A stretch of DNA of 64,000 nt from an uncultured Candidatus Saccharibacteria bacterium. Lineage in GTDB: Bacteria; Patescibacteriota; Minisyncoccia; Portnoybacterales; UBA2143. A program made the position numbers and the translations under genes. Location of the stretch: the NCBI GenBank assembly GCA_964596615.1, contig CAZQUN010000001.1, positions 66,786-130,785 of the forward strand, given 5' to 3'. Positions 1 to 54,011 of the stretch are shown here, in pieces (positions within the stretch are counted from its first letter, which is position 1; every line of letters starts with the position of its first letter). The notes under the pieces are model-generated. The model worked only from the letters and a program-made list of their open reading frames with translations. It ran no database searches and was not told the origin of the DNA.

Positions 1-687
1 AAGAATAATGAAAAAAGGAATAAAGAGATAGAATAGAAACTTTTTTTCTTTCTTAAGCAGAAGATAAATTAAAAGAATTGGCGCTGCAATTAAGAACGCT
101 TCCCTGGCTATCCCGGCTAAAGCCAGGAAAATCCCGGCCAGAGACATTAGAATATATTTATATCTAAAATCTGATTTAAAACCAACAAAAAACAAAAGAA
201 AGAATATTGATAAGAAGAGAAGGGCGACTTCATAGACCCCAAAGTTGTAGGCGGCATACCACCAGTTAAAGGGAAGGAGGATATAGATGAAGGAGAATAA
301 GGCGGCTGTTTTTAGATTGAAGAGATAATAGACGGCGATAGTAAAGATAATTAGTGCTAGGACCAGAATACCAATTGAGATAAAGATTAGATTATTATAG
401 GAAGGTAATCCTGTTATCTTAAATATCTGAGATATGACAATGGGGGCGAGGCGGTTGCTTTCAGTTGAAATTTGTCCCTCCTCTTCAACCAAAGAAGAAG
501 CCAGGAAAACATTAAGACTGTTCTCTGCCCCAAAAAATCCTTCTTGGGACAGATTCCTGGCCAAAAGAGAACTCTTCCATAATTCCATCGGCGAGTAACC
601 TTTGAACATAACCGGAGAATACCAAACTAAAGCTGCTAGGGCAGAGATAATAATTAAAAAACTAATGAGATTTAAAGCATTCTTCAT
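1..687 (-). CDS. Integral membrane protein, C-terminally truncated by window edge (N-terminus MKNALNLISFLIIISALAALVWY...). Not in ORF track
   Basis: Hand translation of the minus strand from ATG at 687..685 gives an open, highly hydrophobic frame to position 1. The ATG overlaps the upstream stop as ATGA (translational coupling). Confidence 0.45.
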   Translation of the reverse strand, partial: MKNALNLISFLIIISALAALVWYSPVMFKGYSPMELWKSSLLARNLSQEGFFGAENSLNVFLASSLVEEEGQISTESNRLAPIVISQIFKITGLPSYNNLIFISIGILVLALIIFTIAVYYLFNLKTAALFSFIYILLPFNWWYAAYNFGVYEVALLFLSIFFLLFFVGFKSDFRYKYILMSLAGIFLALAGIAREAFLIAAPILLIYLLLKKEKKFLFYLFIPFFIIL

Positions 688-2820: not shown

Positions 2821-3913
2821 CAGTTATTAATTTAAGACATTTTAACTTTTCTGGGTTGCGACAAACTCTGGCCGGAGGAAGAACAAAAGAACAAGGAAGA
2901 CATTCAATTTTTTTCTGGACAATAATGCAATTTTCACCTAAAGGTGGTTGTTCATTAATATCAATTGGACCAGCTATATCAACAACCGGAATACCAACAG
3001 CATTAGCCATATAAAGAGGCCCGGTATCAACACTGACAAATACTTTCATTTTTGATAAGAAAGCTGATGACTGAGGAAGAGTAAATAATCCGGCCAGATT
3101 AAATATCCTATTCTTCATCATTGATTCCAAATGATTAATTTTACCTTTATCCTTTTCAGAACCAAAAACAATAATCTCAACACCTAAATCATTGATTAAT
3201 TTGTCAAATAATTGAGCGAATTTTTCCAATGGCCACTCCTTTAAAACATTGCCGGCAGTTACGGCTGTTCCAATTAAATTTTTACCAACCAAATCATTTT
3301 CTCTTAAAAAGCTATCAACTTTTTTTTCATCTTCTTGACTAAAGAATAATTCCTTCTTTTTATCTGTTTCTTTAATATTAATAAATTCAAGCAATTTAAG
3401 ATAATGGGTCGCTGTTAAAGTATGCCTCTTGTACTCCAATCTATCTTTAAAAAGAAGAGAAAGCATCCTGTTGGTTTTGCTAGTATATCTAGAAGTTGTC
3501 ATAACTCTTTTCGGAATAGGCGACCACAAAGAGACTAGAATACCTAAGAGGTCTGGTAATAAGGTAAAACAGGTATCAAATTTCTTTTCCCTGATTTTGG
3601 AAATGAAGGCCAGTTTTTTAAAAAATCCGCCTTTAATGAAATTATCGGCTAAAATTATTTCATCAATATGAGGATTGTTTTCTAAAACCGAAGAAGCCAT
3701 CCCGAGACAGATAACCGCTAAATAGCTTTCCGGATATTTTCTTTTTATCTCTCTAAAAACCGGTGTTGAACAAACCAAGTCCCCTATTTTAGCTGTCTGA
3801 ACAATTAAAATCTTTTTCTGATTGCTTTTTTTAAAAAAACTAATCAATGAAAATAAGGGATAGAAAAGATAAGTTAAAATGAGGAAAATTAATTGTTCAA
3901 TGTATTGATTCAT
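2777..3913 (-). CDS. GT9 family glycosyltransferase (heptosyltransferase-like)
   Basis: N-terminal ILIVQTAKIGDLVCSTPVFREIK and C-terminal SVDTGPLYMANAVGIPVV resemble RfaF/RfaC signature regions. Confidence 0.65.
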   Translation of the reverse strand: MNQYIEQLIFLILTYLFYPLFSLISFFKKSNQKKILIVQTAKIGDLVCSTPVFREIKRKYPESYLAVICLGMASSVLENNPHIDEIILADNFIKGGFFKKLAFISKIREKKFDTCFTLLPDLLGILVSLWSPIPKRVMTTSRYTSKTNRMLSLLFKDRLEYKRHTLTATHYLKLLEFINIKETDKKKELFFSQEDEKKVDSFLRENDLVGKNLIGTAVTAGNVLKEWPLEKFAQLFDKLINDLGVEIIVFGSEKDKGKINHLESMMKNRIFNLAGLFTLPQSSAFLSKMKVFVSVDTGPLYMANAVGIPVVDIAGPIDINEQPPLGENCIIVQKKIECLPCSFVLPPARVCRNPEKLKCLKLITVDDVFKAVFNLYNE

Positions 3914-40907: not shown

Positions 40908-43900
40908 TTAGCCAGACCAACCAATAACATATGGTGTGGTTGAAACAGCATTCTCTAAGCCTGGTACTAAGTGACCGTTATACCACATTGGTAGAGTGGT
41001 AGCGTTGTTAGCGCCAGTTCCTGAAATGCTCGCGCCCTTGTAGTTGTCAGACCATAGGAAGTTACCTAGGTTAGCTGACAGATTCTGGCCGGTTGGGGCC
41101 GTGAATCCTGAGGCGTTGGTAGCATTAGCGAAGTTATGGGTATTAACCTCGTTTGAAGTAGAAACTGTGTCACCAACTAGGAAGGTACTTAGGTTTTCAC
41201 CAGTACCTGCTCCTGAAACAGTACCGCAGACCTTATAAAGTTTGCTTTCGCCAGCCGGAATCTTAATAGCTTCCGTGCTGTCATCAACACTAATGTCTGG
41301 GTTGTCAAAGGTCGCTGTATACCAAGATTCCATATTGCCATCATAGTTGTTGATAGCAGCCGCTGATTTAATCGTATTGCCATCCTGGTCTTTGACATAG
41401 ACATTGGATAATGTCATGCCAGATCCAGAGGTAGCAAAGACGAAAGTAGTTCGATAGAGAAGAACTTCTCCACCGGAAGCATCGGCTGTAACCTTATAGG
41501 CATACATACAAACCGTACCGTTGGTCAGTTCGTCTGCCAAACCGATAGAGTCTGCATCGGTTGAACTAAGTGATCCGGCCTTAGTAACGGTCGGCTTGCT
41601 GGACCTCATAATCATGGCTGAACTGGTTGAATCACGATAAACCTCATAGGTACTAGTGGTAAGTTTGGTATTAGAGGACATACCTGTCGTCTGAATACCA
41701 TTGATACCGCCGATACCAAGCTTTAAGTCAGCTGAGTTAGTACCCGGCGAATTATCGGTGTCTGGGTCAATCGTGCTCATATCGGCTTTGATTGCCAAGG
41801 TCTTATCGCCACCCTTTGGAACGGTCAAGTCGCCAGCGTCAAAGTTGAAGGTGTACTTAGCGGTTGACGGAATAGCCGCTTCGCCTAACTTGGTTGTGCC
41901 ATCATAGACAGCAACATTAGTAAAGTCGCGGTATTCACCACTACCAGCGCTGAAGCCATAACTACCATCAGCTACATAGATTGTCAACTTGTCTAGCCTC
42001 AAATCTTCATACTTGGATGACAGTTTAACGTTGGTAAAGACATTTCCAGTTGAGCCGGCCAAAACAATCGCTGAAGAAGGATTGCTCTCGGTCTCAATTG
42101 TCAATTCTCCATTAGCTCTGGACGTCAAAGTTGGACCATCATCAGAGGTTAAGCTTTCGGTAACTGAGTTACCGGTGTTAACACCATAAGCGGTGATAGA
42201 GTCGCCCCGGAGACCCCAGTTTTCTGTATCATCAGAAACAACTGTGTCTTTATCACCGTGCAACTCAATTGTCATAACCGTACCCTTTTCAATGATGATT
42301 GGCTCTTCCAAAGCGAACGTTGAGGAAGCTGCTGCAGCATCAGAAGAATCAGAAATAGCGTCATTGACTGGAGATTGCGCCACATCATCAGCGTAAACAG
42401 TTAGCGCGTTGGTGTTGGTTGCAGCGAAACCGCTAGCCTTGGCGGTGAAGCCAATAGATGTAATTCTGATGTCTTCTCCTGAGTCAGTCGCATCAAAACG
42501 CCAGCTGGAAAGATTAACATCCTTCTGGTCAATAATGATGTTTGTGTCAGCAGGAAGAGTATTCCTGGTAACTGTCAATGAAGCTGCTTTAACTGTCTGA
42601 GTGTTGCCGCTAATAGATGAGGATGGGGTCGGCGTGATAGAATTGCCGGTTGTAACCCCTTGAGCAGTCATAGCTGAAGGAGTAAAACTGACAACAATAG
42701 TATCATCACTTGCCCAACCACCATTGGTAGCTAGGTCGCCTCGAACCTTGTAAATAGTGTTGCCAACCGGGACGGTAAAGGTATCTGTCCAGGCAACAGT
42801 CAAGACATTGTTAGTAATGTCTGTCGGACCAGCAACAACTGTTCCGTCAGGATCAACTAATTCCAAACCAGTCAAAGCGTCTTCAATCTGACCAGTACCT
42901 CCGCCGGAGGCAACAGTCAAAGTTAGAGCGGAAATATCAATCTCTTCACCCTTAACTTCGAAGTTAAAGGCGCCTAAGATTTGATCATTGGCAACGCCAA
43001 TGTTCTCTGAGCCAACTGAATTACTTCTGGTAACCTGCAAGGTACCATTAGAAATTGTGAATTGGTTATCGCTCAAGACTGGATTGCCACTGCTTGAACC
43101 AGTGCTGCTGTAGGTTGGAGTAATGTTATAACCATAGGTAACACCTTCAACCAATAGGTCGGTTGTTCGGTAAATACCCAGGTCAATGGTTCGAGCTGAA
43201 CCATCTTCAATATCGGCTCTGACTTGATACTGGAGGGTTTGTCCCTTATCAAGAGTAATCGGGTCGAAACTGAAGTTAACGTACTTGCTGCTGGCTACAA
43301 CGCCGTCAGCAACTTTTACTCCATCTTGAAGTAATTCCATGTTAATAACATCAGTTCCTAGAGTAGCGCTACCTTCCTGATAAACCTTAATCTGGCTGAA
43401 TTTAACTTTTTCAGCTGAACCAGCCTGAATCTGGAAGGAAAAGAAGGTGTAATCTTCTTTACCAACCTGAATGCTGGTTGAGGTCGCATTGGTGTAAGCG
43501 CCTCTTTGAACAGTAGCTGTACCAATAGCAATGGTGCTGTTCAAAGTCATTCGGTTACCAGTTAATGGCAAGCTGGCATTTACACTAGCGTCATCTTTAA
43601 CTGTAACAGCAGCTAGAGATAATGACGGTGTTTCACCGTTGTATGAATCTAGGCTGGCAGGCATGTTAGCCGCAATAATAATCGGCTTGGTTGTTCCATC
43701 CTCAACAGTAAAGTCGTTGTTAAAGGTTGACTTATGAAGTGAGTTTAGAGTTTTACTGTTGGTATTGATTGGCAAACCTGTGTCGCCATCAATAAGATCT
43801 AATGAGGAGAAACCGCCATCCTGACCAACGCCAGTTCTTTCAACTACTACCTGGTCAACGATAACATCGCCGCCTGAAGCAGTGAAGTTGAGTTTTGTGA

Positions 43901-44531
43901 AGTAATATCTGGCTGCGTTCTCAACAACGATAGCCGATGCTGGAGTGTCAGCCGCCAAAGAAACTGAAAGAGTTCCTTCGCTGGTAGTAGTGCCTGCTGG
44001 CGGGAAAGTTGCATTCGGATCAGTGACATTAGCACCAGACGTATACCCAGCTGAATCGGTGCTGTTAATGGTGTAAATTGAATCAGCGTCAAAGACCGCC
44101 GTGAACTCACTTGAGGTCATATTGAGCCAATACTTATCACCGGTATCAGTGCCATCGGCAGCATGGAGTCGGTAGACATTGTCAGCTCCATCAACTCTGA
44201 CTAGGTCAGAGGTAGAAAACTCGTCCATGGTTGACTGGTCAACATCCATAACATCATCCCAGTTATCACCATTGCCGTTCTTGTCAAAGTGTGCATAGCT
44301 CTCAAAAACATGAGGGCTAAGAACTAATCTTTTGTACTTCTCGCTGCCAACAACTTTAACAATATAGATGTCGAGTTGAGCTAATCCTGCAGCGCTTGGG
44401 TTGCGGATTAAATCACCATCAACAACATCGACTGCTAAAGCCGCTACTGGAGCAAGCATTGCTACTCCTGAAAGCGATAGAGTTGTAGCGATAGAAGTCA
44501 AAACTGTAATTGACTTTTTCATTTTATTCAT
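40908..44531 (-). CDS. Giant (1207 aa) secreted Ser/Thr-rich surface protein, probable adhesin/S-layer-like with Ig-like beta-rich repeats
   Basis: Signal peptide; N-terminal module shared with the 447-aa protein; low-complexity T/S/G/V-rich repeats. The 262-nt 5' UTR contains the GAGATTG/CAATCTC hairpin. Confidence 0.65.
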   Translation of the reverse strand: MNKMKKSITVLTSIATTLSLSGVAMLAPVAALAVDVVDGDLIRNPSAAGLAQLDIYIVKVVGSEKYKRLVLSPHVFESYAHFDKNGNGDNWDDVMDVDQSTMDEFSTSDLVRVDGADNVYRLHAADGTDTGDKYWLNMTSSEFTAVFDADSIYTINSTDSAGYTSGANVTDPNATFPPAGTTTSEGTLSVSLAADTPASAIVVENAARYYFTKLNFTASGGDVIVDQVVVERTGVGQDGGFSSLDLIDGDTGLPINTNSKTLNSLHKSTFNNDFTVEDGTTKPIIIAANMPASLDSYNGETPSLSLAAVTVKDDASVNASLPLTGNRMTLNSTIAIGTATVQRGAYTNATSTSIQVGKEDYTFFSFQIQAGSAEKVKFSQIKVYQEGSATLGTDVINMELLQDGVKVADGVVASSKYVNFSFDPITLDKGQTLQYQVRADIEDGSARTIDLGIYRTTDLLVEGVTYGYNITPTYSSTGSSSGNPVLSDNQFTISNGTLQVTRSNSVGSENIGVANDQILGAFNFEVKGEEIDISALTLTVASGGGTGQIEDALTGLELVDPDGTVVAGPTDITNNVLTVAWTDTFTVPVGNTIYKVRGDLATNGGWASDDTIVVSFTPSAMTAQGVTTGNSITPTPSSSISGNTQTVKAASLTVTRNTLPADTNIIIDQKDVNLSSWRFDATDSGEDIRITSIGFTAKASGFAATNTNALTVYADDVAQSPVNDAISDSSDAAAASSTFALEEPIIIEKGTVMTIELHGDKDTVVSDDTENWGLRGDSITAYGVNTGNSVTESLTSDDGPTLTSRANGELTIETESNPSSAIVLAGSTGNVFTNVKLSSKYEDLRLDKLTIYVADGSYGFSAGSGEYRDFTNVAVYDGTTKLGEAAIPSTAKYTFNFDAGDLTVPKGGDKTLAIKADMSTIDPDTDNSPGTNSADLKLGIGGINGIQTTGMSSNTKLTTSTYEVYRDSTSSAMIMRSSKPTVTKAGSLSSTDADSIGLADELTNGTVCMYAYKVTADASGGEVLLYRTTFVFATSGSGMTLSNVYVKDQDGNTIKSAAAINNYDGNMESWYTATFDNPDISVDDSTEAIKIPAGESKLYKVCGTVSGAGTGENLSTFLVGDTVSTSNEVNTHNFANATNASGFTAPTGQNLSANLGNFLWSDNYKGASISGTGANNATTLPMWYNGHLVPGLENAVSTTPYVIGWSG

Positions 44532-46808: not shown

Positions 46809-46898
46809 TGGTGGCGATGACGGGGCTCGAACCCGTGACAGTACGGCTACAGCCCACAGGTTATGAACCTGCCGCTCTATCCTCTGAGCTACATCGCC
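46809..46898 (-). tRNA. tRNA with CAT anticodon (Met/Ile2-type) carrying an unusual 19-nt variable region; 90 nt incl. CCA
   Basis: Hand fold: acceptor GGCGATG/CATCGCC, U8A9, D-stem GCTC/GAGC, anticodon stem GCAGG/CCTGT with loop TTCATAA, T-arm ACGGG-TTCGAGC-CCCGT, encoded CCA. Confidence 0.55.
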
Positions 46899-48281: not shown

Positions 48282-48629
48282 ATGAGAAAAGTAGTAATAG
48301 TTCTTTTTTTAGTCGCTGTTATGATTTTTATGACGGCGATAGGGGCGACGGCTCGCCCTGGTCACGGTCAGGCTCGCGGTCACGGTCCACGATGGCATGG
48401 ACACGGGCATGGTCCACGGTGGCCCCTTGTACCATTTGTGCCATGTCTTGTTTCGTGGCCCCATCGTGATTCACCTCCCCGTGACTATTCCGTACGGTAC
48501 GACCCAGCAGTGCCTGCCCGCGGCTGCTGGATCTGGGTTGAGAGTTACCGGATTCCAGGACATTGGAATCGTCACGGTCATTGGGTCAACGAGCTCCGAG
48601 TGGGGGAATGGAAAAGGTGTCCCCCATAA
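48282..48629 (+). CDS. GC-rich small secreted His/Arg/Trp/Pro-rich protein (115 aa) with HGPRW-type repeats
   Basis: Strong SD AAAGGAGAGAGAA-ATG; signal peptide; ~60% GC body in a ~33% GC genome; strong terminator follows. Confidence 0.5.
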   Translation: MRKVVIVLFLVAVMIFMTAIGATARPGHGQARGHGPRWHGHGHGPRWPLVPFVPCLVSWPHRDSPPRDYSVRYDPAVPARGCWIWVESYRIPGHWNRHGHWVNELRVGEWKRCPP

Positions 48630-48701: not shown

Positions 48702-49319
48702 TTATCCATTAATATCATTTAGAGCAATTTCGGCAACCTCCTCAGAGACTCCAAATATCTTTGACATTAAGACTGCTAGGTAGGAATCTAATGTCTTTTT
48801 GTCTATTTCCTCTAGTTTCTTGGATAAAGCAAGCTTATCTTTCTCTTTTAGTATTTTGTTTTTTCTAGACGCCAATATATCTCTTGGCACTAGCAAATAG
48901 TTAGCAAATTTATTTGCTTGTGTTTCCAAATAACTATACTGTTTTTCTGGAATTTCTCGGTAAAGCCTGTAAAAATCGATTGGATTTCTAATGTTAAGAC
49001 CCTTATAGAATTCTTTATGCAAAACAAAATGGCCCACTTCATGAGCCAGTGAAAATCTCAAACGATTCTGAAAACGATCGCTTAAAAACCTGCCTTTATC
49101 GACGTAGATGGATTTCCAGTTTGAAGTGATAAGAGCGTCAACATCAAAACTTTTCTGCAGTCCTGACTTGGGAATAAGGTCTATTTCTAGCTTTATATCA
49201 ATAATACTTTCTATATCAACTGGCACAGACCCATCCCAGAATTTTTCCCTAAATAAATCTGCTTTCTTTTTTACGACTAAATTATCTAAAAAGGGAACTA
49301 CTATCTTTCTGTAATCCAT
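48702..49319 (-). CDS. ImmA/IrrE family zinc metallopeptidase (COG2856-like)
   Basis: HEVGHFVLH HExxH motif; directly downstream of an XRE HTH gene. Confidence 0.7.
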   Translation of the reverse strand: MDYRKIVVPFLDNLVVKKKADLFREKFWDGSVPVDIESIIDIKLEIDLIPKSGLQKSFDVDALITSNWKSIYVDKGRFLSDRFQNRLRFSLAHEVGHFVLHKEFYKGLNIRNPIDFYRLYREIPEKQYSYLETQANKFANYLLVPRDILASRKNKILKEKDKLALSKKLEEIDKKTLDSYLAVLMSKIFGVSEEVAEIALNDING

Positions 49320-49320
49320 T

Positions 49321-49692
49321 TCAACTACCCCTGATTAATTCTATTAATTTATCTATTTCTTCCTTGGTCGGTTTTTTATTCCGAACAGTCCTAAAAAAAG
49401 CGGGTAGGTACTCAACCGCATTTTTTTGAGATAAGATATCCCGAGGAATAATGCCTTGAGCCACTTTAGCCTGATCTATAAGCTCCCCGGTTTTATTCTG
49501 GGAGAGTCCTAAAGTTTTTGCCCATTTTCGCAAGATTCTTTCATCAGACGGAGGAGAAATAATTCCTCTTTCTATTTTACTCCAATTACTTGGATCATAA
49601 TCTATTAACCGACACATCTTTCTTAGGGTTAGTCCTCTTTGAATCCTCATCTCTTTTAAGTTTTTACCAAATTTTTTAAGGTTTTTGTACAT
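49321..49692 (-). CDS. XRE-family helix-turn-helix transcriptional regulator
   Basis: LKEMRIQRGLTLRKMCRLIDYDPSNWSKIERG matches the HTH_3 pattern. Confidence 0.75.
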   Translation of the reverse strand: MYKNLKKFGKNLKEMRIQRGLTLRKMCRLIDYDPSNWSKIERGIISPPSDERILRKWAKTLGLSQNKTGELIDQAKVAQGIIPRDILSQKNAVEYLPAFFRTVRNKKPTKEEIDKLIELIRGS

Positions 49693-49719
49693 AATATTAG
49701 AGATAATTATTTATTCTCC

Positions 49720-49739
49720 TGTGGTATTATCCTACCACA
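49720..49739. promoter_or_regulatory. Operator-like palindrome TGTGGTA-ttatcc-TACCACA overlapping the XRE gene -10 region
   Basis: Seen directly; 7-bp perfect arms. Confidence 0.4.
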
Positions 49740-49767
49740 ATAATATGTTGGATGTCAAATAAACATC

Positions 49768-49776
49768 TGTGGATAA
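49768..49776 (-). promoter_or_regulatory. DnaA-box-like 9-mer, 9 nt upstream of the TTGACA -35 of the XRE gene
   Basis: The minus strand reads TTATCCACAgatgtttatTTGACA. Confidence 0.35.
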
Positions 49777-49962
49777 ATTCTACGGTTCGTATCTGATATT
49801 ATCTCCCAAAACAACATCGGAGCTAATAAGCTGCAAGGGCTGAGCACTACCATACCGGAAAAGGATATGGTCCAATTCTCCCCGACTGCCGGTAAAGAAC
49901 TTAATATTCTTCCAGTCGCCAACCGCCGGCGTTGTGCTGACATTGTCTTTTGAATTTTATTG

Positions 49963-51453
49963 TTAAATCTGAACTATTTCGTCCATTTTCGTCTGTAAGA
50001 AATTGTTAATTATCTCGTCCCTATTTCTATCAAGAACAGCATTAAGCAAGACAATTATATCTTTGTCCGTCAAAACAAATACATAAACGCTCCTATTGAT
50101 AACAAAATCTCTACAAGTTTCCAAAGCTCTTTTTTTATTTTTGATACCCCTACACACAATATACCCGATGGTAGATTCGCGGTTATTAAATCTGCCATTC
50201 ATTTGGTCATACTCAGGGTTATTTATGTCGTGACTATAATTCTTACATTCAAACAATATCTTAGCGCAGAATAATCTGCCATAATTAGATAGCCGCGAGA
50301 AAAAACCCCTATCGCTTGAATTATGAAAAGTAATGTCTATTCTTTTTCTGCCTTGGTTTTGGGGGTCTTCCTTTTTAGGACCGCATAAGTAATTACTTGA
50401 ACTGGGGTCATTAAAAATCGTATTTAAACAATCTAGAATATGTTCGTGATAATCGTCAGCATCTTGATTTCCGGGTTTTATTTTTTGAAACATTTTTATT
50501 TTCTGAGTTATAGACTCTTGTATCTCATTTTTTCTTCTTTGCTTCTTTATAATATCTTCGTTTCCAACAGTATTTAAAGCAACCTTGCTCTTTTTGTTCT
50601 TATATTCTTTTAGTAAAGTTGGACGGTCCTTAATATAATCAAACACTAGTTCCCGTGACAGATTATACCGCCCATCTTTTTTAAGAGTCTTCTTGTATGG
50701 TTTAGCTATGCTTTTGTCTTTAAGAGTCCGACATAAAGCAGTTCTCAAATCATAATGTCTGGCTTGCTCAAACTCCAGTATTCCTTTGTTGTAAAAGTCA
50801 GCATAATTTATTGAGATATGTCTTCTTAATACCCTTTTAGGCACTAGCAACATCTTTTTACCTTCAACCACCAATAATCTTTCTTGGTTTTTCTGAAGAA
50901 AATCCCTTTTAGACTCATCCCAAAATATCTTGGTCTGAGTTTCTGCCATATCAATACCATATAAATCACATTGTTGTTGGGTATACTTAATTAAATCTAA
51001 TCTAATTATGTTCGTTACAATATCAGATACATTATCATTTCCGATATTCTCTATATGTAACGCGGTATCTTCAAGGTCGTTTAAATAACCAGACTTAACC
51101 GCCTTACTCTCTTTTAATTTACGGTAAATAGCTCTTGATTTTTTTCTGCCAATAGATTTTCCATCCTTTGTCTTGCGACCATAACCCAGTCCAGTTTCGC
51201 TAGGTTCGTGTAAATTATCTAATAAATCTAAAGCTTTATCCCTATTGCCCTTACGGATATAATTTATCAATCTTTCAAAAACAGATTGTATCTTTTGATA
51301 GCAATCCACAGAAAAATCATCATCTCCGCATCTTATAGCCCAAGGATCAATAAATAGAGGCGTATCCTTTTTGATAAAGCAATCAAAAAAATCCAAATCA
51401 TACTGGGTTTTTCCTAATTCAAAATATTCGGAAATAGTCTTTTTCATTTTCAT
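49963..51453 (-). CDS. Hypothetical protein with C-terminal PD-(D/E)xK nuclease-like motif (restriction-endonuclease-like; possible defense protein)
   Basis: RIDITF ... LFECKNY (D...ExK arrangement); the 350-aa N-terminal domain has no recognisable motif. Confidence 0.35.
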   Translation of the reverse strand: MKMKKTISEYFELGKTQYDLDFFDCFIKKDTPLFIDPWAIRCGDDDFSVDCYQKIQSVFERLINYIRKGNRDKALDLLDNLHEPSETGLGYGRKTKDGKSIGRKKSRAIYRKLKESKAVKSGYLNDLEDTALHIENIGNDNVSDIVTNIIRLDLIKYTQQQCDLYGIDMAETQTKIFWDESKRDFLQKNQERLLVVEGKKMLLVPKRVLRRHISINYADFYNKGILEFEQARHYDLRTALCRTLKDKSIAKPYKKTLKKDGRYNLSRELVFDYIKDRPTLLKEYKNKKSKVALNTVGNEDIIKKQRRKNEIQESITQKIKMFQKIKPGNQDADDYHEHILDCLNTIFNDPSSSNYLCGPKKEDPQNQGRKRIDITFHNSSDRGFFSRLSNYGRLFCAKILFECKNYSHDINNPEYDQMNGRFNNRESTIGYIVCRGIKNKKRALETCRDFVINRSVYVFVLTDKDIIVLLNAVLDRNRDEIINNFLQTKMDEIVQI

Positions 51454-52454: not shown

Positions 52455-52835
52455 ATTTTTATTATACTGACTATTTCTATAAAATCAACCCTGACAGATA
52501 GATGGATATTCAACAGAGATTAGATAGTAATCTTTTTAAAAATAAAAACCCAATAGGCCGTAAACTATTGAGTAAAAAGTTCTTTTCCTAGCCAGTTGTC
52601 TAATAGTTCCCAGATAATACTTGGATTAGCATAGCACCATCATCTCCTTTGTATACTTTAATTTAGGAATCCGAGAAAATCAGGTTCTCTAGGGTTTCCG
52701 AAGATTTACATATCTCCCCATAGAAACTGCAAGGGCTTGGGGCGTGAACTAGCCGAGCCTCATTTACAGCAACTGGCTAGGAAAATAGCTAGCGTATTTA
52801 GTTTAATTCTTTTATTTTATTTTGTCAAATCATCA

Positions 52836-53084
52836 TCAAGAGAACCCGATCCCATATCCTAAAAACCCGGCTAGGGCTGATTTGGAGATTTGTTTGATGC
52901 TCTTGTTATACCAAACCAGAGAAATTCCGCCCAGAAGTCCCAGCACAATAATTGCCATAAAGTGAAAAGGATATTCCAAATCCGGCAACTCGCGATAAAG
53001 TATCCATCCCCAAAGCAAACCGCCCAAACCAAATCCAATAATATTGATTAATAAATATTTTTTAAAAGATATATTCTCAAACAT
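52836..53084 (-). CDS. Small 2-TM membrane protein (82 aa)
   Basis: Strong SD (GGAGG) upstream; Gly-zipper-like GFGLGGLLWG. Confidence 0.45.
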   Translation of the reverse strand: MFENISFKKYLLINIIGFGLGGLLWGWILYRELPDLEYPFHFMAIIVLGLLGGISLVWYNKSIKQISKSALAGFLGYGIGFS

Positions 53085-53192
53085 AAAAATTCCTCCTTGT
53101 TTCTATTTTACCCCAAAAGCCAAACCAAACAAACAAACTTATTAACAACTCAACTATCGACATTCAATATCAATATTTTTGAAGAATAACCC

Positions 53193-53381
53193 TTGACGTT
53201 TATAATGCCTCGTGGTAGTATAAAGAGGCAACCCGCCAAAATGATACCCCAATTGGGTATCGTCTCGCGAAGTAGTGGACATCCTAGACAGCCATTATAC
53301 TGTCGCCTCCGTGCCCTAAAGATGGGATATAGCGGAGAATGGACCCACACGAAGAACGAGTGAGGCGGGTTTCTTCGTTTC
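53193..53381 (+). ncRNA. Candidate small RNA unit 1 (promoter TTGACG-17-TAGTAT; ~155 nt; terminator hairpin CGAAGAAC.../GTTTCTTCG)
   Basis: Promoter and terminator seen directly; no credible ORF (only a 16-codon frame); GC-enriched. Confidence 0.3.
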
Positions 53382-53437
53382 CTAAATTGTAGTTATGGGG
53401 TTATAGGGATATGGATAAGAGATATGCCTAAAAACTC

Positions 53438-53631
53438 TTGACAAGTTTGTTTGTATATGATACGATATTAACAATATTAGCGGCCTGCCGAAAAAAGACG
53501 ACCCCCAGTGTCTTCGGAGTAGAGGCCAGTATTACAGGGGTGATTGGAAGGAATAAAACCGCTCCCCTTCCGAAAAATTGTACTTGAGGCGGAACCCCCC
53601 GGGCGAAATAACAGTAACTCGGGGGTTTTTT
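53438..53631 (+). ncRNA. Candidate small RNA unit 2 (promoter TTGACA-17-TACGAT; ~160 nt; strong terminator CCCCCGGG...CTCGGGGG + U6)
   Basis: No ATG anywhere in the transcript; internal hairpins (GGCCTGCC...GGCCAG; GGAAGG...CCTTCC); followed by a conserved 45-nt block shared with unit 1. Confidence 0.45.
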
Positions 53632-53729
53632 CGCTTCCCAAATTGTAGCTGTGGAGTTATAGGTATATGGATGACAATCATAGCGACCCCGAACAATTCT
53701 ATCCCAAAACCAATAATCCCCCTAAAAAC

Positions 53730-53738
53730 TTATCCACA
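53730..53738 (+). promoter_or_regulatory. DnaA-box-like 9-mer adjacent to a bidirectional terminator
   Basis: TTATCCACA on the plus strand; a GCCGC-tggg-GCGG hairpin + T6 follows at 53741..53767. Confidence 0.3.
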
Positions 53739-53783
53739 ATAAAAAAGCCGCTGGGGCGGTTTTTTACTTACGCCACCAGCGGG

Positions 53784-53948
53784 TTAAGAATTTTGTTCCC
53801 TACTTTGAATATAATCCCATTTTATCCTGTCCTCTCGTATTTCTCTTTCCACGGGATCATTGTCTTCAATTGTCCGAGAATCGGCCCCGCATTCTGGACA
53901 GGATTCTCCCCTGCTAATCCTCCGGTAACCACATATTGGACAATCCAT
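53784..53948 (-). CDS. 54-aa double-CxxC zinc-ribbon protein (MDCPICGYRRISRGESCPECGADSRT...). Not in ORF track
   Basis: Hand translation; SD AAGGAGGG 6 nt upstream; promoter TTGACA-16-TAATAT at 54014..53988; terminator at 53741..53767. Confidence 0.55.
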   Translation of the reverse strand: MDCPICGYRRISRGESCPECGADSRTIEDNDPVEREIREDRIKWDYIQSREQNS

Positions 53949-54011
53949 CTTATCCCTCCTTCTTTGTAAATTCGCTTTTTTTAAGAATATTATCAGAAAA
54001 CGTGCTTATGT

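Follow-up and report, generated by a model that had tools for sequence, protein, structure and literature searches.

Two candidate orphan small-RNA units on an accessory insertion, framed by a terminator-block-promoter module that recurs in Parcubacteria

Two short predicted transcription units stand in tandem in a GC-rich stretch of a variable chromosomal island, each followed by a copy of the same block of sequence. What are these units, and why does the block follow both? The initial annotation took them for two small-RNA units with their own promoters and terminators, and suggested a paralogous sRNA family or a processed repeat element. Small RNAs, promoter architecture and mechanisms of gene exchange are almost entirely uncharted in the candidate phyla radiation. 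We analyzed the locus within the whole stretch of DNA available, 64,000 nt, referred to here as the window. The reading we favor, with a probability of about one half, takes them for self-contained, moron-like units of non-coding transcription, carried by an accessory insertion and framed by a conserved junction module that acts at the level of DNA.

A consensus scan recovered both promoters as they had been described, each with a TG extension of the -10 element. The units are made up as follows:

53193-53221, plus strand: promoter P1, TTGACG-17-TAGTAT, TG-extended -10 (consensus scan)
53228-53383, plus strand: unit 1 RNA, about 155 nt, predicted ends
53438-53466, plus strand: promoter P2, TTGACA-17-TACGAT, TG-extended -10 (consensus scan)
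53473-53634, plus strand: unit 2 RNA, about 160 nt, without an ATG (predicted)
53596-53631, plus strand: intrinsic terminator of unit 2, hairpin and U6
53748-53782, no strand assigned: GC-rich hairpin between an A-run and a T-run, -21.2 kcal/mol

The 2-kb region holds 11 promoter-like sites, versus 4.4 ± 2.5 in shuffled sequence. P2 is a credible promoter, as homologous promoters elsewhere drive protein genes; P1 is credible from its consensus alone. The two stops are of different quality. At the end of unit 2, positions 53596-53603 pair with 53618-53625 in a GC-rich stem of 8 bp; U6 comes next, and the stability is -16.9 kcal/mol. A simple terminator scan missed this stop because its 14-nt loop is longer than the scan allows. 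The 3′ hairpin of unit 1 (53350-53377) has an 8-bp AU-rich stem and a 14-nt loop, reaches -6.7 kcal/mol, and is followed by UUUCC with no true U-run. This makes it a weak terminator, so transcripts from P1 may run on into unit 2. The proposal of one terminator per unit thus stands in full for unit 2 and in a weakened form for unit 1. Further downstream, the hairpin at 53748-53782 is the stop of a convergent Zn-ribbon gene on the minus strand (53784-53948), and transcripts reading through on the plus strand would end there too. Judged by the features of an sRNA gene (its own promoter, its own intrinsic terminator, no open reading frame), unit 2 has all three, there being no ATG between 53467 and 53634, as had been noted. 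Unit 1 has the promoter, the weak stop and an unsupported 40-codon reading frame inside.

The GC content of the RNA bodies is 0.525 for unit 1 and 0.513 for unit 2, versus a window mean of 0.365. The 99th percentile of 150-nt windows across the 64 kb is 0.515, and the bodies rank in about the top 1%. The GC-enriched island of the initial annotation is therefore real, and the elevation continues rightwards to about 54700, across two protein genes.

We then searched for known RNAs. Over the whole window, Rfam 15 at the gathering score returned two tRNAs only, with no match to either unit. When the threshold was relaxed to E ≤ 10 for the region 52900-54000, the best match was NsiR1, at 21.1 bits against a threshold of 39, and it covered the terminator hairpin only. 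No riboswitch family matched the units even at E ≤ 10, ARAGORN found no tmRNA, and Rfam searches of the related loci described below, at gathering and permissive thresholds, gave nothing relevant. The region had been called unassignable to 6S, SRP, tmRNA or RNase P by eye, and it remains so after these scans, which produced no match to a housekeeping RNA.

The two predicted RNAs fold differently. The minimum free energy of unit 1 is -54.4 kcal/mol (z = -3.27), and only 2 of 200 shuffles fold equally well. Its dominant helix is a long-range stem that closes the 5′ end on the 3′ end (53230-53237 with 53364-53371) and encloses several hairpins, the strongest of them a perfect 7-bp stem, GAUACCC/GGGUAUC. 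The fold of unit 2 does not stand out from its shuffles (z = -0.07). This unit carries a degenerate block-like piece at 53575-53589 (AAATTGTACTTGAGG, repeat family D2), located after a GGAAGG/CCUUCC hairpin. Using exact 20-mers in IMG/VR and blastn of the insertion against phage and plasmid records, we found no homologue of either RNA body in these sources, nor in the collected loci. Since no body homologue was found, the RNA bodies may have no function. Duplex predictions between the units and nearby start regions gave no convincing complementarity, with long, loop-rich pairings and |z| ≤ 1.6, apart from one case that involves a third unit and is taken up with it below.

The reading frame in unit 1 had not been noted before:

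53241-53363, plus strand: open reading frame of 40 codons from the ATG at 53241; 56 codons if read from the TTG at 53193

Could unit 1 simply be a gene for a 40-aa protein (MIPQLGIVSRSSGHPRQPLYCRLRALKMGYSGEWTHTKNE)? The frame begins 13 nt after the predicted RNA start and extends to the region of the 3′ hairpin, its ATG has a GAGG 12 nt upstream, and other cassettes framed by the same module do encode small proteins. We consider this very unlikely nonetheless. Among 1.84 billion representative proteins there was no true homologue; two matches at E of about 1e-5 are spurious, because in both weak scores add up over internal repeats of unrelated long proteins. A Pfam search with seven reading frames across the region, on both strands and at E ≤ 1, gave no match, and on an identical Logan contig, which stems from SRR24302413, the gene caller called no gene at this frame. 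The GAGG sits at the extreme 5′ end of the RNA, adjoining the closing helix, and GC3, about 52% by manual count, is a value that we would take to be high for a genome of 36.5% GC. The statement that the plus strand has no credible reading frame thus survives as to coding support, and needs the correction that unit 1 does contain a frame of 40 codons. The fold of unit 1 also invites comparison with a cis-regulatory leader or riboswitch, with the closing helix and the weak terminator hairpin as competing structures; the loop of that hairpin does contain the 3′ strand of the helix, so that one would form at the expense of the other. Downstream on the plus strand, though, there is no gene: P2, unit 2 and its strong terminator follow, and then convergent genes. 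Together with the missing riboswitch match, this leaves the leader reading with next to no credit. The two units might also be a paralogous sRNA pair that arose by tandem duplication of one ancestral unit, as the initial annotation proposed. They do share their layout, with a period of 245-256 nt, and a global alignment of the bodies is marginally above shuffles, its score being reached by 14 of 500. The local alignment, in contrast, is at chance (score 21 versus 18.7 ± 3.1 in shuffles, reached by 125 of 500), the predicted folds differ, and the conserved parts are a module that stands beside unrelated genes in other genomes. Because the module flanks unrelated genes elsewhere, common flanks do not imply common bodies. 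We find no detectable relationship between the two bodies; as far as their sequences tell, the parts they have in common are the promoter and the block. Descent from one duplicated RNA gene is accordingly improbable, and the idea of a paralogous family gives way to that of a shared junction module.

The common trailing sequence of the initial annotation is a direct repeat of 50 nt with 86% identity, present once after each unit:

53367-53416, plus strand: block copy 1, "internal" type, core 53384-53407 (repeat and profile)
53623-53672, plus strand: block copy 2, "terminal" type, no promoter after it, core 53640-53663 (repeat and profile)

A search of the 64-kb window gave these two core matches and no others, versus 0.00 expected, and the block is also carried by further Parcubacteria contigs. 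In those contigs it forms part of a module of about 100 nt with a constant order: the T-run of a terminator, (C)TTCCC, AAATTGTAGCTATGGAGTTATAGG, YATGTGTGTTAGGGATATG, a TTGACN -35 element and a TG-extended -10. As members of the module we counted sequences with the core AAATTGTAGYTRTGGRNNTATAGG directly after a hairpin and T-run, a TTGACN -35 about 51-54 nt past the block start, and a TG-extended -10. Block 1 together with P2 has all of these over the full length (53373-53468; profile score 60.0 bits, E = 3.6e-17), the -35 of P2 sitting 54 nt past the start of block 1. This copy is homologous to the other modules over about 100 nt, a stretch that begins at the T-run and reaches the -10. Block 2 fits only the first half of the profile (positions 2-45, 29.0 bits).

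To collect the module we searched one genome per species (185,579 genomes) with a strict core pattern. It matched one stretch, in a contig of a Parcubacteria MAG, JABMPX010000004.1 (L002), which has two block copies. A slightly relaxed pattern run on metagenome contigs added three more, L005, L007 and L008, all AT-rich and Parcubacteria-like; L003, L004 and L006 were chance matches to the pattern. IMG/VR had no match to the block pattern. Across the collected loci the core profile counts two copies in the window, two in L002, three in L005, two in L007 and one in L008, and with a longer profile L007 gains a degenerate third copy at 852-943, so the family consists of only about 11 copies from 5 genomes.

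In these copies the block begins 12-20 nt after a hairpin, inside a T-rich run, the sole exception being a degenerate copy in L005 at about 320. All six internal copies, as read from their sequences, have a TTGACN or TTGAAA -35 at a fixed 51-54 nt past the block start and a TG-extended -10. In the other contigs the promoters of the internal copies precede a 5′ UTR, a ribosome-binding site and an open reading frame. The genes framed in this way are mutually unrelated: two different HIT-family proteins, a methyltransferase, small membrane proteins and a 389-aa protein. The terminal copies (L002b, L005c, L007 at 3154-3194 and block 2 of the window) precede a convergent gene and keep the first 30 nt or so. 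Three of the terminal copies (L002b, L005c and L007b) have a common right arm, GTGCATRCC. The end junctions of the L007 array are each odd on one side, the first in its left arm and the last in its right arm. The block is missing from L019-L024, contigs that encode a HIT protein 84-86% identical to that of L005.

How does the block act? We found no conserved RNA fold in it, the consensus reaching only -2.6 kcal/mol, which removed a structured RNA from consideration. Neither did we find inverted arms flanking it, and with no partner arm it is not one arm of a long palindrome or of a MITE. Having neither a conserved RNA fold nor a partner arm, the block most likely acts as DNA. The alternative idea of a processed repeat element is thus half right: the block is a repeat element, and a processed RNA is unlikely. 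By eye, we also rejected a sigma-54, T7-like or second sigma-70 promoter, a dif/Xer site, a Ter site and an uptake sequence, each of which disagrees with the block in spacing or in copy number. In the literature we found no relevant work on the motif, or on non-coding RNAs and integrons of the candidate phyla radiation. We infer that the block is a protein-binding DNA site tied to the junction, which may serve either the promoter or recombination. The fixed spacing of 51-54 nt to the -35 argues for a promoter-associated binding site. The promoter-less terminal copies, the pattern of n genes with n+1 junctions, and the patchy distribution of near-identical copies argue for a role in cassette exchange. 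Against exchange stand the lack of a recombinase among the window proteins examined, of an attC-like palindrome and of a block at the left edge of the insertion.

That the units lie on an insertion became apparent from related loci:

53149-53695, plus strand: accessory inserted segment with both units and both blocks, 547 nt absent in relatives
53105-53148, plus strand: left copy of the duplicated upstream region of an 82-aa gene (alignment)
53696-53739, plus strand: right copy of the same region (alignment)

Window positions 52843-53148 align to L015 988-683 and positions 53696-53746 to L015 726-676; in L015 the two matches overlap and form one continuous sequence. The segment 53149-53695 has no counterpart in L015 or L016, and L025 has the same gap between its two matches. 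The flanking duplication is about 45 nt long (53105-53148 versus 53696-53739, 71% identity), and both of its copies align to a single copy in L015, L016 and L018. The left copy is closest to the version in L018 and the right copy to that in L015, L016 and L025. Thus, from these alignments, the segment of about 550 bp is a strain-specific accessory insertion. Its edges are the 45-nt target duplication, and its left edge has no block. Homologues of the adjacent 82-aa membrane protein (64-80% identity) mark five further sites, and the units are present at none of the five.

The same position holds other things in other genomes. L017 has a different divergent promoter there, with a stem-forming RNA of about 60 nt and a terminator; L015 has a promoter and a 112-aa zinc-finger reading frame. 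Self-contained units of various kinds are therefore gained and lost at this spot. Over a longer range, relatives identified by a 67% identical CDP-alcohol phosphatidyltransferase are syntenic with the window from about 63.6 kb down to about 54010, where synteny stops. Past that point they carry a T-box-like leader and a different gene, not the units. On its own side the window has a PDC-M36A candidate defence protein with CapH/CapP-like regulators nearby. No recombinase domain was found among the window proteins from 44.8 to 57.2 kb.

A further unit of similar kind lies close by, on the opposite strand:

52545-52828, minus strand: third stand-alone RNA-like unit, directly after the 82-aa gene, with promoter, closing stem and terminator

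Its promoter is TTGACA-17-TAAACT (52828-52800), its closing stem of about 18 bp pairs 52790-52770 with 52598-52578 (inverted repeat I2), and its terminator is at 52573-52548, all on the minus strand. The fold has z = -2.70, with none of 200 shuffles as good, and Rfam gave no match to this unit. The initial annotation did not mention this third minus-strand unit, just as it did not mention the insertion polymorphism with its flanking duplication or the reading frame in unit 1. Unit 3 also accounts for the one exception among the duplex predictions, that between unit 2 and unit 3; the signal arises because unit 2 has a weak similarity (2 of 300 shuffles) to the unit 3 region as read on the plus strand. 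A degenerate block-like piece is present inside unit 3 as well (52678-52655), and the 3′ end of unit 1 (GAGTGAGGCGGGTTTCTTCGTTTCCT) resembles, by eye, the terminator of a 54-aa gene in L002. With these decayed block pieces and the L002-like end of unit 1, the region looks like a patchwork of module pieces and short GC-rich inserts.

Such a patchwork can be read in a less generous way. The units could be empty or decayed protein cassettes of the kind that the module frames, with a 5′ UTR and a 3′ UTR left behind, and their transcripts would then be functionless by-products. Lengths fit, since coding cassettes elsewhere have a 5′ UTR of about 40 nt and a 3′ UTR of 16-90 nt, with a sum near the length of a unit. 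At its start (TTAACAATATTAGCGG), unit 2 is similar to the 5′ UTR of the same 54-aa gene of L002 whose terminator the end of unit 1 resembles; unit 2 also has its internal block-like piece and no fold signal; and the units are absent in relatives, with no homologues found. Decay, however, is expected to drift towards the AT-rich background (36.5% GC), and the bodies, at 51-52% GC, are in the top 1%. The fold of unit 1 is clearly non-random, and no frame matches a protein family. On balance we regard decayed cassettes as unlikely, although they deserve to be kept in mind. A more ambitious reading makes the block a site of site-specific recombination or binding, and the units RNA cassettes in an unrecognised integron-like array system of Parcubacteria, in which small cassettes with their own promoter and terminator, and with protein or RNA cargo, would be captured and shuffled between genomes. 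The arrays do have n genes and n+1 junctions, with the odd end arms of L007 and the GTGCATRCC arm of L002b, L005c and L007b. Genomes with unrelated flanking genes have nearly the same core, the relatives with the closely similar HIT protein lack it, and the array is present or absent between strains. By eye, a pair of short inverted arms can also be seen in the core, TAGCTAT-N6-ATAGGTA, with several of its variants located in the 6 nt between them. Against this, no recombinase gene is present in the window between 44.8 and 57.2 kb and none was noticed in the reading-frame lists of the short loci L002, L005, L007 and L008. The block forms no long imperfect palindrome of the attC kind, the insertion is bounded by the target duplication and not by block sequences, and HIT, among the framed genes, is a housekeeping gene with wide conservation. 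We hold an integron-like system to be doubtful.

We return to the reading of two moron-like non-coding units. According to it, each unit would begin with a strong, extended -10 promoter of the sigma-70 type, continue with about 150 nt of GC-rich untranslated body and a stop made of a hairpin and a U-rich stretch, and be followed by the block. The block would be the terminator-proximal half of the junction module and not a piece of a duplicated RNA. A few Parcubacteria lineages appear to place this module between small, independently transcribed genes; in the window it would frame two non-coding inserts, giving two unrelated orphan small RNAs. Both are probably transcribed as discrete RNAs, and for P2 the homologous promoters that drive genes elsewhere back this up. 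The product of unit 1 would be about 150 nt long, a stable RNA of several helices closed by the pairing of its ends and bearing a U-rich tail; that of unit 2 would be a loosely structured RNA of about 160 nt ending at the strong terminator. These RNAs might act in trans, as accessory, moron-like cargo of a variable, defence-rich island.

If expressed, the units are strain-specific orphan sRNAs in such an island; if they are decayed cassettes, the finding is of local interest only. The module itself is compact and sharply conserved, and it recurs between unrelated genes of different Parcubacteria, which makes it either an unusually conserved regulatory site or a mark of cassette exchange. Should it prove to be a recombination site, its significance would rise sharply.

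Several known systems resemble parts of this locus. In AT-rich genomes, GC-rich intergenic regions mark structured non-coding RNAs, as in searches of the Breaker-lab type. The two bodies resemble such regions in their top-1% GC, their scarcity of reading frames, their own promoter and terminator and, for unit 1, a significant fold. They differ in that no body homologues were found, and so no covariation evidence, and in that unit 2 has no fold signal. Phage morons, known from the lambdoid literature, are autonomous promoter-gene-terminator units inserted between genes. Like them, the units of the window are self-contained, with their own sigma-70 promoter and factor-independent stop, on an insertion missing from related strains. 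Unlike them, they carry non-coding cargo and reside in a Parcubacteria-like chromosome island that is no recognisable prophage. Morons, to our knowledge, have no conserved junction sequence.

Integron cassette arrays are a further comparison. They have species-specific conserved attC sites, such as the Vibrio cholerae repeats, and CALINs are clusters of attC sites that lack an integrase. Short cassettes separated by one direct repeat, n+1 junctions, varied and sometimes non-coding cargo, and a patchy occurrence between strains are all points of likeness. The block, however, is not an attC-like imperfect palindrome: it shows neither the R''-L''...L'-R' arrangement nor the RYYYAAC/GTTRRRY ends, and the only resemblance, found by eye, is a 6-of-7 match in GTTAGGG. 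There is no integrase nearby, each module cassette has its own promoter and terminator, and the edges of the insertion in the window are not block sites. A repeat array of the CRISPR, TIGR or ToxI type was discarded, as the block occurs just twice, at a distance of 256 nt.

Intergenic repeats that carry promoters or terminators include the Correia elements of Neisseria, REP/BIME, BOX and the "putative mobile promoters." The module resembles these in being a conserved extragenic sequence at gene ends that supplies a promoter and a terminator. Those elements are high-copy and usually have terminal inverted repeats, whereas the module is very low-copy (two in 64 kb) and we saw no such repeats. 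As sRNA-like orphan genes carried by an accessory insertion, the units themselves are of an ordinary kind, and no known family fits them. The module that frames them looks like an undescribed variant of either the intergenic repeats that carry promoters and terminators or the repeats of cassette arrays.

Two of the module-bearing Parcubacteria contigs, L002 and L007, bear on the extent of the conserved unit. The 3' UTRs before one module terminator in each (L002 1405-1500, L007 1665-1770) are alike, ACATCACNTAACANGGNATATNTNACTACNCCNATC..., and the hairpins of these two terminators are also alike, CAGTTYAAC...TTARCTG. Because both the UTRs and the hairpins are alike in the two contigs, the conserved unit may start ahead of the terminator.

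Three other RNA-like elements lie in the window or in the loci compared with it:

Window 52545-52828, minus strand: third stand-alone RNA-like unit, directly 3' of the 82-aa membrane-protein gene
L017 ~190-310, minus strand of the locus: a different small unit, sited with respect to the homologue of the 82-aa gene where the window has its tandem pair
L009 11446-11695, and likewise in L010-L013: T-box-like leader, in the syntenic intergenic region of relatives

The third unit has a promoter, TTGACA-17-TAAACT, a closing stem of ~18 bp and an intrinsic terminator at its end; its fold z is -2.70, and Rfam returned no match for it. The 3' half of unit 2, the downstream member of the tandem plus-strand pair, shows a weak likeness to the plus strand of this region (2/300 shuffles). 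In the L017 unit, the promoter CTTGACA-18-TATTAT is followed by a stem RNA of ~60 nt, GTGTCTG...CAGACAC, enclosing a GCGAAAGC hairpin, and then by a terminator. Rfam had no match for this unit either.

We also recorded the following features in the window:

40908-44531, minus strand: 1207-aa ORF
46809-46898, minus strand: tRNA with a CAU anticodon, adjoining a normal tRNA-Lys(CUU)
48282-48629, plus strand: 115-aa protein ORF, the only sizeable plus-strand ORF of the neighbourhood
48702-51453, minus strand: PDC-M36A candidate defence locus, matched by PADLOC

The 1207-aa ORF is without a match in Pfam, NCBIfam and PADLOC. The tRNA(CAU) spans 90 nt; its variable arm is long and its CCA end is encoded, a combination atypical of Met/Ile2-type tRNAs. 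The 115-aa protein has a high content of His, Gly, Pro and Arg; GHGPRW motifs recur in it, its N-terminus is signal-like, and PADLOC found no match for it. The 496-aa protein of the candidate defence locus gave a match to PADLOC's candidate defence family PDC-M36A (E = 4e-42) and is annotated as Pfam DUF8370 in the locus record. Upstream of its gene are an XRE-type HTH protein and an M78 peptidase, matching capH and capP. The locus has the look of a candidate defence gene regulated by CapH/CapP, here in a Parcubacteria-like genome.

The leader in L009 scores 41.9 bits (E = 6.6e-8), under the Rfam gathering score of 93; it carries the AGGUGGUACCACG box, along with a promoter and a terminator of its own. 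Downstream lies a gene for an 820-aa PPDK_N / PEP-utilizer protein, a gene type uncommon under T-box control.
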